Source: Escherichia coli (GTDB lineage: Bacteria > Pseudomonadota > Gammaproteobacteria > Enterobacterales > Enterobacteriaceae). Taken from it: a stretch of DNA of 64,000 nt. The stretch lies in the NCBI RefSeq assembly GCF_016026235.1, contig NZ_CP065613.1; one strand, written 5' to 3'. Both the position numbers and the translations under genes were made by a program. Of this stretch, positions 3,653 to 13,363 are shown one piece after another (the first letter of the stretch is position 1; the number at the start of each line of letters is the position of its first letter). A model generated the notes under the pieces. It did not search any database. It worked only from the letters and a program-made list of their open reading frames with translations, and was not told where the DNA came from.

Positions 3653-3934
3653 TTAAAGTTCGTGTGCCATCTGGTCTTTTTCGGCGCAGATTTCACTACA
3701 ATATTTGCGTTTCTTTTTCCTCATCATGGTTCCGTGCATGTAAATAAGTTCAGCAGTGTAAGCCTTATCAGGGCTTACTTGTCTGTCACACAGGCCATAA
3801 GCACAGGGAATTAAATCGGGATCACCTTTCTGCTGGAGGGTTTTTTTGATTATCCATAACAATTTTTTGATTCCGGTGTGTGTTATGGTCTGCTGAGGTG
3901 CAGAGGTAAAACAATAATCAAGCATAGGGTTCAT
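3653..3934 (-). CDS. Hypothetical small Cys-containing protein
   Basis: 93 aa ORF; lysine-rich with CAYGLC...CSEICAEKD. Confidence 0.45.
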   Translation of the reverse strand: MNPMLDYCFTSAPQQTITHTGIKKLLWIIKKTLQQKGDPDLIPCAYGLCDRQVSPDKAYTAELIYMHGTMMRKKKRKYCSEICAEKDQMAHEL

Positions 3935-3950
3935 ATCCGTAGCTCCATTT

Positions 3951-4505
3951 TTATTTTAAAGAAAGTAATTGTTCCACAGTCATATTTTTAATTGCGCCCC
4001 GGTTAACAAGAGTCCATCCCTGTTTTTCCAGATAAAACCGGAAAGTCTCCAGGGTACAGACCAGTGCGCCATCAGGAACGGTTTCGGTGAATTCGACATT
4101 GCCGAATTTGTCGAAGTGAACAACCAGAGTGCGACCATCACCCGGAATCATCTTGTCAGCAGGTGGGGTGTTATTCTGGCGCAGTTCGGCCTCCATGCGG
4201 TCGAACTCAGCAATGTAGGCTTCCTTGAATGCGGCGGCTTTTTTGCCAGTGAAGCCCATCATCAGGAAAACGAAGCCGTTTTTGGTGATTTGGTACATTG
4301 GGCGTTTTTCGCCTTTGGCGTCGGTATAGGTGACGGGCTTAAAATTAAGCCGGTTAAACTCCGGCGAGCATTCGAGAGTTTCGATCTTCTGAATAACGTT
4401 TTTGTGCATTTTCCGGAAGAACTTCGCAACCGCAACAGACGTAGTGACAGCGCGACCATTTTCGATGGTTACGTCAGGGTGAGAAAGGGTAAGGATAGTA
4501 GCCAT
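3951..4505 (-). CDS. Rha-family phage regulatory protein
   Basis: Motif TKNGFVFLMMGFTGKKAAAFKEAYIAEFDRME typical of Rha; start taken at internal Met (4505); long ORF extends to 4799. Confidence 0.6.
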   Translation of the reverse strand: MATILTLSHPDVTIENGRAVTTSVAVAKFFRKMHKNVIQKIETLECSPEFNRLNFKPVTYTDAKGEKRPMYQITKNGFVFLMMGFTGKKAAAFKEAYIAEFDRMEAELRQNNTPPADKMIPGDGRTLVVHFDKFGNVEFTETVPDGALVCTLETFRFYLEKQGWTLVNRGAIKNMTVEQLLSLK

Positions 4506-4670
4506 GATGGCAGCCTCGATAGTCAGTTTAAATAACTCACCACCAGAGGTAGCAATCTCATGGGTGGTGAGACGCACAGGGTTGCTACAACCGGTGACTA
4601 CCGAAACCGGCCAGCCTTGCGGCTGCCCTGCACGCCCCACCATAATCTGAATGTGGCTGTGCTTGACGCA

Positions 4671-4694
4671 TAAAAAAACCGCCTGAGCGCGGTT
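4671..4694 (-). terminator. Intrinsic terminator (minus strand)
   Basis: Stem aaccgc/gcggtt with 6-nt loop followed by a 7-A run on plus strand (U-run on minus transcript). Confidence 0.45.
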
Positions 4695-4821
4695 ATGCGC
4701 AGTAGTCATCGTCGGGGTAGCAATCCCGGCCCCCGTTTTATGAGGTGCAGGTGCACTATAATTCCACCCGTTCTGGTTTTCAATAGCTACATTCAACATT
4801 TTCTCTCACCTTTCATCACCG

Positions 4822-4976
4822 AAGTGAATTTTGTGATGCGGTGCCTGGTGCCTCCAGGTGACGTTAACCAGTTAACAATTACAGTCGGCTTTCCCACCCA
4901 AACCAATAAGGACTAACATGACTTTTAACTGTGCCGCGTGCGCTTAGCCGCATTCACCGCATCACAAAATTCACTT
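4822..4976. repeat. Perfect 22-bp inverted repeat separated by 111 bp
   Basis: aagtgaattttgtgatgcggtg (4822-4843) vs its reverse complement caccgcatcacaaaattcactt (4955-4976). Confidence 0.6.
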
Positions 4977-5206
4977 TAAAAAGGGCGGACATCAGCCAGC
5001 AATTAAACCGATGCCGCCAACTGGTACTTCACACAGCAATGTCGTTATTTACAACCGGAAGCGCACTCCCACCATTTAAATTTCACAGACAAGACCGACT
5101 CTTTATGGATACCGGAAATGCGCCTTCGTGTTGTGCCCGGTTTTATTTCACCACCTCCGGGCTTTGGTGGTATCTTTACTGAAGTTCTCACACAACCAGT
5201 AAGGAA

Positions 5207-5503
5207 ATGAATATGCCAACGTATCTCGCCAGAGTAGAACTATATAATGCTGAGCCAGAGGATTACGAAGGGCTTCATAAATATATGCTCTCACTAGGAT
5301 TCAGGAGAACGATCCCCCATGGAGATGGTTCGTATAATCAACTCCCGGACGGAACTTATGTTTCCGAAAAGGGCGGTGATATTTATCAAATTCGCAGCCA
5401 GATATCTGACTATGCAGACCGACTATCCGGGTATCGCGCGTCTGTTTTTGTTTGCGAATTCAGTCAATGCGCATGGTATTTATACCCCGCCAAGACCCGG
5501 TGA
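5207..5503 (+). CDS. Hypothetical protein
   Basis: 98 aa ORF convergent with and overlapping the 3' end of the 5480..5692 ORF. Confidence 0.4.
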   Translation: MNMPTYLARVELYNAEPEDYEGLHKYMLSLGFRRTIPHGDGSYNQLPDGTYVSEKGGDIYQIRSQISDYADRLSGYRASVFVCEFSQCAWYLYPAKTR

Positions 5504-5692
5504 ATATCCTGCACGGCCTTCTGCTTTGTAGAAGGCTTCTTCGCTATCATAATCGCCAGATTCCAGCGCTTCTTTAGCCAGCCAGATGCGTGCCCCAGTG
5601 CCTGCATTTGGCTCCAGTTGCTGGAGGCGTTTTGCATCTTCTGGGAGTAGAGCGATAACGTGTTTTAATTCTGTCTCGTTCATTTTACTCAC
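5480..5692 (-). CDS. Hypothetical small protein
   Basis: 70 aa ORF; 8-bp overlap with upstream ORF suggests translational coupling. Confidence 0.35.
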   Translation of the reverse strand: MSKMNETELKHVIALLPEDAKRLQQLEPNAGTGARIWLAKEALESGDYDSEEAFYKAEGRAGYSPGLGGV

Positions 5693-5894
5693 CTGAATGT
5701 CTTCCCAACCAACGACGTGCGCCAGCTTCGGTTTTAAACGTTTTGCTTTTGGTATACGTCATGGCGGTGAATGTGCCGTCCTGGTTGGGGAACACGCCGT
5801 ACACCAGAGATTCGTTGTTGCCAAGATCGATAGTATTCATGTTGACCCCATTTCCCCTTAACGCCGGGGTAGCGGAACTGTTTGCTGAGAACAC
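5685..5894 (-). CDS. Hypothetical small protein (start possibly at internal Met, ~51 aa)
   Basis: 69 aa ORF immediately downstream of the DicA-like repressor on the same strand. Confidence 0.35.
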   Translation of the reverse strand: MFSANSSATPALRGNGVNMNTIDLGNNESLVYGVFPNQDGTFTAMTYTKSKTFKTEAGARRWLGRHSGE

Positions 5895-6042
5895 CGTGCG
5901 GTGTCTTGATGAATGAAATTTAGAATAACCTAAGATGGGCGGCCAAGATTTTTATGTAGAAAAACCTAAGTTTTTTGATGTAAAAAACACAAGTGTTTGA
6001 AAGTTTGTGCTTTTTATTACAGGGTGTGGAGAAAAAAGGGGA

Positions 6043-6450
6043 TTATTTGTTTGCGCTTCTTTTGCGAGCTTTGAGTAGTTCTTCAAAAAGTTTGTTGAAA
6101 TTTTCAACTCGAGCACGCATCTCTGACAACAGGGCCTTTTGCTCTGACTCAGGCAGTGCGTCGAACAGTTGAAGTAACTCTTTTTGATCTTCTGTCAGAA
6201 TGGCTGGCTGATTATCCGGGATCGGTTCGCCTGGTTGTTTATCTTCATCCCCAAAAAGAAGCCAAGTCGGTGAGCACTGAAGCGCTTGGCTCAGTGCGAA
6301 TAATCTTTTCCCCGCCGGCTGTGTTTCATCTCTTTCCCATTGAGAAATTGTTACGTGAGCCACTTTGACCAGCTTACCTAATGCGGCCTGAGACAGTTTT
6401 AATTTTTTACGCCTATGTAAGAGGCGAGCACCGAAGGTTTCGTTTTTCAT
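6043..6450 (-). CDS. DicA-like HTH (XRE-family) prophage repressor
   Basis: 135 aa; HTH LSQAALGKLVKVAHVTISQWERDETQP; resembles Qin DicA from memory; divergent from a Cro-like gene. Confidence 0.8.
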   Translation of the reverse strand: MKNETFGARLLHRRKKLKLSQAALGKLVKVAHVTISQWERDETQPAGKRLFALSQALQCSPTWLLFGDEDKQPGEPIPDNQPAILTEDQKELLQLFDALPESEQKALLSEMRARVENFNKLFEELLKARKRSANK

Positions 6451-6526
6451 ATTAGGGAATTCTAATTTTTCTTGACTTAGGTTTCTCTACGATCTAGTTT
6501 CCTTAGGAAAATCTAAGGAGCTCGAT
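6451..6526. promoter_or_regulatory. Divergent promoter/operator region between repressor and Cro-like gene
   Basis: 76-bp intergenic with imperfect inverted repeats (ttagggaattctaat; ccttaggaaaatctaagg) and an SD before 6527. Confidence 0.4.
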
Positions 6527-6754
6527 ATGTTGAAAATTGATGCTATAGCGTTTTTTGGCAGCAAAACAAAGCTTGCCAATGCCGCAGGAGTTAGGCTGGC
6601 AAGCATTGCTGCATGGGGGGAACTGGTTCCTGAAGGTCGCGCGATGCGCCTGCAAGAGGCATCTGGCGGGGAACTTCAGTACGACCCCAAAGTTTATGAC
6701 GAATATCGTAAGGCAAAACGACCTGGGAAGGTGATTCATGAAAATCAGGCATGA
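6527..6754 (+). CDS. DicC/YdaS-like Cro-type regulator
   Basis: 75 aa; resembles DicC/YdaS from memory (FGSKTKLA...GRAMRLQEASGGELQYDPKVYDEYRK). Confidence 0.7.
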   Translation: MLKIDAIAFFGSKTKLANAAGVRLASIAAWGELVPEGRAMRLQEASGGELQYDPKVYDEYRKAKRPGKVIHENQA

Positions 6755-10464: not shown

Positions 10465-10691
10465 TTTTATGGGGCACCTTTCTGATTGATTTCATATTGG
10501 CGAGGTAAGTAGAATGACTGCGGGTGCTTGAGGCTATCTGCTTCAGGCATGAACACCAAAAGGCAGATAGAGAAAAGCCCCAGTTAACATTACGCGTCCG
10601 GCAAGACGCTTAACATTAATCTGAGGCCAATTTCATGCTTTGCACATGTAGGTTAGCCTCTTACATGCCGAAAGGCAAGGAGAAGCAGGCT

Positions 10692-10847
10692 ATGAAGCAG
10701 CAAAAGGCGATGTTAATCGCCCTGATCGTCATCTGTTTAACCGTCATAGTGACGGCACTGGTAACGAGGAAAGACCTCTGTGAGGTACGAATCCGAACCG
10801 GCCAGACGGAGGTCGCTGTCTTCGTAGACTACGAATCCAGGAAGTAA
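10692..10847 (+). CDS. hok: Hok/Gef-family type I toxin
   Basis: 51 aa MKQQKAMLIALIVICLTVIVTALVTRKDLCEVRIRTGQTEVAVF, near-canonical Hok; in-frame upstream extension from 10635 may be mok-like. Confidence 0.8.
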   Translation: MKQQKAMLIALIVICLTVIVTALVTRKDLCEVRIRTGQTEVAVFVDYESRK

Positions 10848-13052: not shown

Positions 13053-13129
13053 GGCCCTTTAGCTCAGTTGGTCAGAGCGAGCGACTCATAATCGCCAGGT
13101 CGCTGGTTCAAGTCCAGCAAGGGCCACCA
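13053..13129 (+). tRNA. tRNA-Ile2 (anticodon CAU; could also be read as Met)
   Basis: Hand-folded cloverleaf; anticodon loop ctCATaa; close to E. coli ileX-type from memory; ends CCA. Confidence 0.8.
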
Positions 13130-13130
13130 A

Positions 13131-13207
13131 CCACCACTAGCTCATCCGGATAGAGCATCAACCTTCTAAGTTGACGGTGCGAGGTTCGAGTCCTCGGTGG
13201 TGGGCCA
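13131..13207 (+). tRNA. tRNA-Arg (anticodon UCU)
   Basis: Acceptor ccaccac/gtggtgg, anticodon loop ctTCTaa, T-arm ggttcgagtcc, 3' GCCA. Confidence 0.75.
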
Positions 13208-13209
13208 GC

Positions 13210-13285
<76 letters not shown>

Positions 13286-13288
13286 TAT

Positions 13289-13363
<75 letters not shown>

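Follow-up and report, generated by a model that had tools for sequence, protein, structure and literature searches.

The perfect 22-bp inverted repeat at positions 4822–4976 of the window, by which we mean the whole 64,000-nt stretch of Escherichia coli DNA analyzed here, is functional at the RNA level on the minus strand, where it forms the helix that closes a divergent element of the STnc100 family. We are highly confident of the identity, strand, and structure of this element. The explanation that best accounts for the repeat as a whole, namely that it closes a minus-strand STnc100-type RNA and that this extended closing helix (P1) also serves as a processing site, appears to us reasonably probable.

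The first-pass annotation described a perfect 22-bp inverted repeat with a 111-bp loop, and a repeat search bears this out in coordinates, length, and complementarity. Its arms, at 4822–4843 (AAGTGAATTTTGTGATGCGGTG) and 4955–4976 (CACCGCATCACAAAATTCACTT), are 22 nt long, 100% complementary, and separated by a 111-nt spacer, and the repeat is bounded, with bases 4821 and 4977 unpaired. No further copy of the arms with up to three mismatches was found in the 64-kb window beyond the two themselves, and none of 100 dinucleotide-preserving shuffles contained an arm match. Folding of both strands, which had been proposed as a check, gave minimum free energies well below those of shuffled controls, at −63.1 kcal/mol (z = −4.7) for the minus strand and −58.7 kcal/mol (z = −5.8) for the plus strand. 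Such strength on both strands is expected of any long inverted repeat and therefore does not identify the strand. The open reading frames overlapping the element are all short and unsupported, in agreement with its earlier description as non-coding. The parts of the element, all on the minus strand, are as follows.

4822–4976, minus: the complete 155-nt structured RNA (STnc100-like "X" element), read from 4976 to 4822; Rfam match, fold, and homologues
4955–4976, minus: P1 5′ strand (AAGUGAAUUUUGUGAUGCGGUG), with an inner GGUG that is invariant family-wide; repeat and alignments
4936–4951, minus: P2 hairpin, 5 bp, one A bulged, pentaloop UNNGC (GCGGC-UAAGC-GC-A-CGC); covariation
4887–4935, minus: P3, a hypervariable region; alignments A3 and A4
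4860–4886, minus: P4 hairpin (GACUGUAAU / GUUAACGUC), with two adjacent mismatches here (U-C and G-A)
4844–4858, minus: P5 hairpin CCUGG-AGGCA-CCAGG, immediately adjacent to the P1 3′ strand; fully paired in all 70 copies
4822–4843, minus: P1 3′ strand (CACCGCAUCACAAAAUUCACUU), with a predicted processing site after A4832, by homology to a K-12 Term-seq end

The Rfam STnc100 model (RF02076) matches 4830–4971 on the minus strand at 34.1 bits, against a gathering score of 47, with an E value of 4.5e-5 for the 2.8 kb scanned and 1e-3 for the whole window, and the repeat coincides with the outer helix of the model. No second STnc100-type copy was found in the window at E ≤ 0.1. The same model gives 34.4 bits for K-12 Qin, 28 bits for K-12 Rac, 43 bits for P7, and 207.7 bits for a canonical copy. 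The P1, P2, and P5 consensus helices of STnc100 are all present in the window copy, which has the GGUGAAU and CACCNGGAGGCACCNGGCACC motifs in common with the canonical copies (207 bits). The family plan seen in alignments A3 and A4 runs from P1 through the junction AAU, P2, P3, a P4 of 8–9 bp, a single A, and P5 (CCNGG-AGGCA-CCNGG) to the P1 3′ strand; the invariant GGUGAAU is thus the inner GGUG of P1 followed by the junction AAU, and P3 varies in length and sequence even between otherwise near-identical copies. Judged by its sequence and structure, the element is a divergent member of the prophage STnc100/PasD family.

This family was sampled by scanning viral contigs for CACCNGGAGGCACCNGGCACC, which gave at least 120 loci, with 119 stretches extracted, 77 of them distinct. 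One canonical copy lies between stx2B and nanS-p/yjhS in a Stx2 phage, and a second is flanked by Q and the lysis genes; the copy in P7 has terB on one side and tRNA genes of the ban operon on the other. All of them are in sense orientation to their operon. In Stx2 phage F039 (L123 3029–3288), the canonical STnc100 copy that follows stx2B is separated at its 3′ end by a 1-nt gap from the AsxR anti-sRNA (minus strand, 88 bits). P7 carries, about 110 nt from its element, a tRNA-Sec-like match (L002 2229–2313, minus strand) of 46.6 bits against a gathering score of 47, situated between terB and the annotated tRNA-Thr and tRNA-Asn.

STnc100 and PasD have been treated as related prophage sRNAs to which no function has been assigned (bioRxiv 10.64898/2026.05.13.724894; PMC9029176). 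EHEC strain EDL933 has 11 annotated, expressed STnc100 copies, one of them confirmed by northern blotting (PMC5331693). PasD is Hfq-dependent, and PasD sRNAs end in a terminator. The window element resembles STnc100 and the PasD of EPEC in its helix order, in the GGUGAAU and CACCNGGAGGCACCNGGCACC motifs, in the UNNGC loop of P2 with its bulged A, and in being prophage-borne and in sense orientation inside long operons. However, it differs from STnc100 in its sub-threshold score (34 bits against 47), in having P2 and P4 of a second type (GCGGC... and GUUAAC...), in a P1 of 21–22 bp where STnc100 has 8–10 bp, in lacking a terminator of its own and a promoter-like site directly upstream, and in being fixed directly behind an sRNA of the DicF/KilS type.

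Three other identities were considered and set aside. A put-type antiterminator RNA was rejected, as the HK022 genome contains neither the family motif (with up to three mismatches) nor an Rfam match at E ≤ 0.1. A hammerhead-like core, CUGAUGA...GAAA, can be read in the Rfam consensus, yet it is not conserved across copies, and no ribozyme family was matched. A tRNA-like mimic was suggested by the way in which P5 abuts the P1 3′ strand, as a T arm does, but the loops are of 5 nt and no CCA follows, and we take the likeness as no more than a resemblance.

Support for the structure, as distinct from the sequence motifs, comes from covariation. In a joint alignment that includes the canonical copies, the inner 8 bp of P1 together with P2 and P5 are 99.4% paired among 70 distinct copies from the matches listed. 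In the same 70 copies, pairing falls to 83.4% when the partners are shuffled among sequences and to 33–44% when they are slid by 1–3 columns. Eight of the 18 pairs in these helices (P1 inner, P2, and P5; 70 copies among the matches listed) have changed on both sides. Three of the five pairs of P2 do so, with 99.7% of cells paired, the helix taking the form CCCCC/GG-A-GGG or GCGGC/GC-A-CGC. In P5, which is 100% paired, 48 copies have G-C as the middle pair and 22 have U-A. Among the sRNA-linked copies (n = 20), 41 pairs are 98% paired and the 22-bp P1 is 97% paired, with compensatory change at three P1 pairs; these changes in the extended P1 stem from few independent events, mainly from one sequence (L113). 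P4 covaries within this subfamily (98.3% paired), to which its count was confined because MAFFT shifts the canonical 5′ strand by one column.

The same alignments identify the strand. Relatives of the element contain 66 G·U wobbles on the minus-sense reading and 3 A·C, a one-sided pattern that neither a DNA cruciform nor a plus-strand RNA would tolerate. In 93 of 96 downstream flanks and 95 of 107 upstream flanks, the longest open reading frame runs in the direction of the element, although the loci are related prophages and the counts are not independent. Together with the compensatory double changes and with a 3′ end that has been mapped in the orthologous K-12 helix (see below), the wobbles support the earlier suggestion of a large RNA stem, and they place it on the minus strand.

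The four Rfam matches in a scan of 3800–6600, DicF-like, STnc100, isrK, and C4, follow one another in a single row on the minus strand. The neighboring features are as follows.

6043–6450, minus: cI-like gene, with ydfA/ydaF-like small genes after it
4978–5072, minus: KilS/DicF-like sRNA with an intrinsic terminator (stem 5015–4988, U tract 4982–4978); Rfam, terminator scan, and alignment
4755–4783, minus: promoter-like site TTGAAA-17-TATAGT of the isrK-C4-Rha module, with 10/12 consensus matches
4672–4748, minus: isrK-family sRNA, Rfam 57.6 bits, above the gathering score; terminator stem 4694–4677 followed by a T run
4560–4647, minus: C4 antisense RNA, Rfam 75.7 bits, above the gathering score
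3951–4799, minus: 282-aa "Rha" open reading frame, with the Rha domain from residue 108

The placement of the repeat in an early-left leader, made in the first-pass annotation, is imprecise: the element is located about 1 kb downstream of the cI-like gene and directly after the terminator of the KilS/DicF-like sRNA, the first base of the repeat (4976) lying 2 nt past the U tract. The Rfam DicF model (RF00039) matches 4983–5033 on the minus strand at 28.6 bits against a gathering score of 48, and the K-12 KilS region scores 39.1 bits against the same model, likewise below the gathering score. The window region aligns at about 95% with the part of K-12 Rac between sieB and kilR, in which the window sRNA corresponds to kilS (b4833), a 98-nt sRNA at 1418405–1418502 in the K-12 RefSeq record, and KilS and DicF end at the same terminator, CCGCCCUUUUU. 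By this alignment, the window sRNA at 4978–5072 (minus strand) is an unannotated orthologue of the KilS of K-12 Rac. KilS itself resembles a DicF paralogue in its common terminator and in the sub-threshold scores with the DicF model. KilS has been verified by northern blotting and lies in the 5′ UTR of kilR, possibly with a transcription start of its own; the paper that describes it does not mention DicF (PMC8175672).

The element occupies the corresponding place in two K-12 prophages. In Qin, it lies within the 174 nt from dicF to dicB (L125 1443–1594), with a P1 of 21 bp that includes two G·U pairs, and in Rac it lies between kilS and kilR. The order at these loci is thus dicF, element, dicB in Qin and kilS, element, kilR in Rac, and the start codon follows P1 by 20–25 nt. 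The K-12 RefSeq record carries no annotation of the element for either the Qin or the Rac copy, and neither the KilS paper nor the Pas/STnc100 preprint mentions it. The window locus is therefore like the K-12 dicF and kilS loci in that its sRNA and element are homologous to theirs, and it represents the Rac-type version; it differs in that kilR is replaced by an isrK-C4-Rha module.

A search of relatives, which the first-pass annotation had also proposed, revealed that the repeat is widespread, and the refuting condition named there, its absence from relatives, clearly does not hold. A 281-nt query comprising the element and the KilS/DicF-like sRNA matched in 4632 of 5426 complete E. coli genomes (~85%), at a median of 2 places and a maximum of 9. 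In most relatives, the match begins at query positions 43–46, which are window positions 4822–4825 and the outer end of the repeat, so that homology stops where P1 stops. The gene downstream of P1 varies, being dicB, kilR, or, in the window, the isrK-C4-Rha module. All 22 phage records with a K-12-type dicF also carry the element, after dicF. The Qin-type element of E. coli also occurs in two phage records, Aeromonas phage AP1 (MT713136.1) and Actinobacillus phage vB_Apl-pPE4 (PP818812.1). With the K-12 dicF query, AP1 gives a partial match at 98.5%, while in pPE4 only the region upstream of dicF is matched, at 92%. These occurrences may reflect contamination or chimeric assembly.

Terminal inverted repeats, sharp boundaries, and many copies per genome (a median of 2 and up to 9 places) might suggest a MITE, or an excision footprint, with 22-bp terminal inverted repeats. 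However, the flanks (...TTTTTA and CGGTGA...) contain no target-site duplication, and the canonical copies likewise have none. Moreover, the supposed terminal repeats differ between subfamilies in all but 4 bp and covary as a helix does, the orientation is almost always sense (the 93/96 downstream and 95/107 upstream flanks given above), and the site after dicF is always the same, with no empty site among the 22 phage records. A MITE or excision footprint is therefore extremely improbable, and the excision footprint of the first-pass annotation finds no support in an interior that is a conserved, covarying, multi-helix RNA.

The length of P1 sets the sRNA-linked copies apart from the rest of the family. 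Among 64 distinct elements from the matches listed, P1 is 21–22 bp only in those that follow a DicF/KilS terminator, and it is 6–10 bp in the others. With 22 perfect pairs here and 21 in most relatives, it has the length (about 20 bp or more of largely uninterrupted double-stranded RNA) that is characteristic of an RNase III site. The outer 12 bp are AU-rich and contain G·U pairs in most relatives. The third pair from the outer end is G·U in 14 of the 20 sRNA-linked copies and G-C in the window, and the 22nd pair, which is missing from most of these copies, is present in the window. The perfect 22-bp repeat is therefore the cleanest instance of a conserved helix of about 21 bp.

The window copy is, moreover, a mosaic of two variants: the Rac type accounts for the first two-thirds from the 5′ end, with the P4 5′ strand GACUGUAAU, and the Qin/L102 type accounts for the P4 3′ strand GUUAACGUC and the 3′ arm. 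In relatives, P4 is GGCGUUAAU/GUUAACGUC or GACUGUAAU/GUUACAGUC, either of which is fully paired; the mismatches at 2 of the 9 P4 pairs in the window are thus due to its two strands coming from different variants, and the window copy may be partly defective. The junction falls within the invariant UAAUUGUUAACUGGUU stretch, inside the conserved core, and thereby shows that recombination uses the element as a patch, irrespective of the role for which it is selected.

This mosaic structure, the break in homology with most relatives at the outer end of the repeat (4822–4825), and the occurrence of the element at moron and module boundaries raise the question of whether the feature acts at the DNA level, as a cruciform, a protein-binding palindrome, or a conserved recombination "linker" between prophage modules. 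The strand-asymmetric wobbles, the compensatory changes, and the near-constant sense orientation point instead to selection on RNA, and recombination at the element may simply follow from its conservation without being the function that is selected. In addition, a spacer of 111 nt disfavors cruciform extrusion. A cruciform regulatory site, as had been suggested earlier, finds no support either, given that most relatives have G·T positions that would be mismatches in DNA on one strand, that the arms are 111 nt apart, and that the sole promoter-like site nearby is downstream and belongs to isrK. A role at the DNA level is accordingly very improbable.

We therefore return to the RNA, and to the question of how P1 is used. 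Term-seq of MG1655 lists an "orphan" 3′ end at 1649584 on the plus strand, which precedes the dicB start by 25 nt and was recorded under two conditions out of three, with means of 1035 and 753 reads; its Rho score of 0.95 is not significant, and its intrinsic-terminator score is 1.2, the cutoff being 3 (PMC7815308). On the basis of the printed 61-nt string that starts at 1649534, this end maps to nucleotide 12 of the 21-nt P1 3′ strand, 9 nt inside the helix, at the A after CAUCAC. For the Rac copy, to which the window copy is more closely related, no internal Term-seq 3′ end is listed (PMC7815308). In RNA-seq of an rnc deletion compared with the wild type, a "dicF-dicB" entry at 1649470 is covered by 26 reads in the mutant and by none in either wild-type replicate (PMC5371410 Table S1). 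The position falls inside the element and lends weak support to dependence on RNase III: reads are few, the signal is not specific to one position, sites up to 400 bp apart were merged, and the authors assigned the entry to the DicF site already known. The Rac entry in the same table, at 1418510, is upstream of kilS. The possibility that P1 is the RNase III site already known for DicF was rejected, because the published cut generates the 5′ end of a 190-nt species and precedes dicF by about 137 nt (bioRxiv 10.1101/2023.04.14.536235).

Two further observations on the Term-seq data concern the surroundings of the element. A strong "orphan" 3′ end of about 5400 reads at K-12 1649368–1649369 on the plus strand (L125 ~1369) lies 13 nt upstream of dicF, directly after a 9-bp hairpin (GGGUUGUCA...UGACAACCC). 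At the DicF and KilS terminators themselves, no 3′ ends are listed.

On this evidence, in which the 3′ end is solely that of the Qin orthologue and the enzyme is deduced, RNase III processing within the extended P1 seems to us slightly more probable than its absence. The 2-nt 3′ overhang of RNase III products would place the partner cut in K-12 Qin between 1649453 and 1649454, and the two cuts would excise a core of 132 nt, closed by 10 bp, a stem as long as the P1 of canonical STnc100. The equivalent in the window would be a 3′ end at 4832, that is, a predicted processing site after A4832, with a partner cut between 4965 and 4964 and a core of 133 nt. Canonical P1 helices are too short for RNase III, and such cleavage therefore cannot be the core function of the family.

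A consensus scan found neither a promoter-like site directly upstream of the element nor a terminator-like site or U tail after P1. The element is therefore probably made by read-through of the KilS/DicF-like sRNA terminator. In the mechanism that we propose, polymerase starting either at a promoter of the sRNA itself or at that of the early-left operon would read through this intrinsic terminator. The growth of P1 from 6–10 to 21–22 bp, or about two turns of double-stranded RNA, would have created a site of endonucleolytic processing, most likely by RNase III. Cleavage in P1 would trim the read-through RNA back toward the sRNA terminator, would provide a new 5′ end for the downstream message, whether dicB (Qin), kilR (Rac), or isrK-C4-Rha (window), and would free a core RNA of about 130 nt, closed by a stem of about 10 bp and of canonical STnc100 size. 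The sRNA and the downstream message would thereby be uncoupled.

A stem with a structural role alone would make P1 part of an Hfq-associated STnc100/PasD-type sRNA or a passive stabilizer, the K-12 3′ end then arising from another nuclease or from exonuclease nibbling into the AU-rich outer half of P1. Family members are indeed expressed, one of them being northern-verified in EHEC, PasD is Hfq-dependent, and the AU-rich outer 12 bp with their G·U pairs in most relatives could breathe. However, 3′ exonucleases usually stall several nucleotides outside a duplex, and the K-12 end lies 9 nt inside one. Furthermore, the window copy ends without a terminator or U tail and is not directly preceded by a promoter-like site, in contrast to PasD-type sRNAs, which end in a terminator, and the extension to about two turns is confined to one subfamily and kept paired there. 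We regard a purely structural stem as unlikely.

The constant order of sRNA, element, and division inhibitor in both Qin and Rac, with a start codon 20–25 nt after P1, would also fit a cis-acting 5′-UTR device, an insulator or attenuator for the toxic gene dicB or kilR that would restrain its expression from read-through RNA, that needs no cleavage, and that would be an orphan in the window, where kilR has been replaced. The Adams data agree with this to the extent that, in 800-nt windows, coverage drops about 4-fold across the site (73 reads upstream and 18 downstream). On the other hand, the gene after P1 is freely exchanged, and canonical copies have unrelated genes as neighbors, being found behind stx2B, within late operons, and in the ban operon of P7. 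Pairing of P3 with a ribosome-binding site was considered as well and rejected, since a comparison by eye of P3 with the ribosome-binding regions of dicB and kilR showed no complementarity. Such a device appears to be quite improbable.

A wider version of the processing model can be drawn, according to which lambdoid and P1-like prophages would carry STnc100 as a portable RNA cassette, its conserved frame of several helices presenting the hypervariable P3 arm as the specificity determinant. The DicF/KilS-linked subfamily would be gated by RNase III, so that read-through would yield three coordinated products of a single transcript, a division-controlling sRNA, a freed STnc100-like RNA, and the mRNA of a toxic division inhibitor, DicB or KilR. 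We put this forward as an improbable conjecture.

Processing at P1 would have parallels among phage RNAs. Intercistronic RNase III hairpins of phages, such as the R1.1-type sites of the T7 early region and those of the lambda N leader and sib, are simple hairpins. P1 is like them in placing about two turns of double-stranded RNA between the cistrons of an early phage transcript, so that the RNAs could be separated by cleavage, and the 3′ end mapped in the orthologous K-12 helix fits such a separation. It differs from them in closing a conserved multi-helix core of 110 nt, and cleavage is here a proposal. The C4 antisense RNAs of P1 and P7 and the CI RNA of P4 (CL00128) are comparable in having a long closing stem around internal hairpins and in being cut out of an operon transcript, and a C4 copy lies 175 nt downstream of the element in the window. 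C4 is matured by RNase P; in the element, no tRNA- or CCA-like sequence follows P1, and the two have no sequence or model match.

The module that follows the element has its own start. The isrK model begins 7 nt downstream of the promoter-like site at 4755–4783, and this site, outside the element, marks where the next module begins. The minus-strand terminator that had been noted at 4671–4694 exists, as a stem at 4694–4677 with a T run, and it terminates the isrK-family sRNA. The N-terminal part of the 282-aa open reading frame, which RefSeq annotates as Rha family at an identical locus, overlaps the complete isrK and C4 matches, and an in-frame ATG at 4505, preceded by a GAGG Shine-Dalgarno sequence, is situated just after the C4 match. 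Since the Rha domain begins at residue 108 and this ATG is available, the 282-aa frame is probably over-extended across two RNA genes; the Rha-like neighbor recognized earlier is thus real in its domain, with a start later than the frame implies. The isrK-C4-Rha module resembles the immI region of P1 (c4-icd-ant) and isrK-anrP of Gifsy-1. Several PHROG families cover only the N-terminal part of the frame and may be translations of RNA genes.

In addition to these features, a 98-aa open reading frame at 5207–5503 (plus strand) matches YmfI at 54 bits, the curated cutoff being 140, and phrog_8894 at E = 7e-38; it sits in the place of sieB of K-12 Rac and is unannotated in the RefSeq identical locus (L126). 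Elsewhere in the window, RNA matches occur at 10522–10697 (plus), 13053–13360 (plus), 52311–52399 (minus), 56951–57009 (minus), and 48666–48877, and the families represented are the sok antitoxin (117 bits), four tandem tRNAs, sRNA-Xcc1, the lambda cIII thermoregulator (88.5 bits), and several naRNA4/REP-like elements. The window probably spans more than one prophage or island.

Finally, STnc100 is among the most often annotated "sRNAs" of enterobacterial genomes, and a sub-threshold branch of it, present in about 85% of complete E. coli genomes by the 281-nt query, is unannotated in two well-studied K-12 prophage loci, dicF-dicB and kilS-kilR. If the RNase III-gated cassette is real, it would be an unrecognized third component of these two classic loci, and processing in P1 offers an explanation for the "orphan" Term-seq 3′ end 25 nt upstream of dicB. 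The two-turn helix provides a simple and testable handle on the biology of the family. At the least, these results reveal an annotation gap, with the 282-aa "Rha" frame and several phage "hypothetical proteins" drawn over conserved RNAs; if, beyond this, the element sets the output of DicB and KilR from read-through, it would bear on how toxic division inhibitors are silenced in cryptic prophages.
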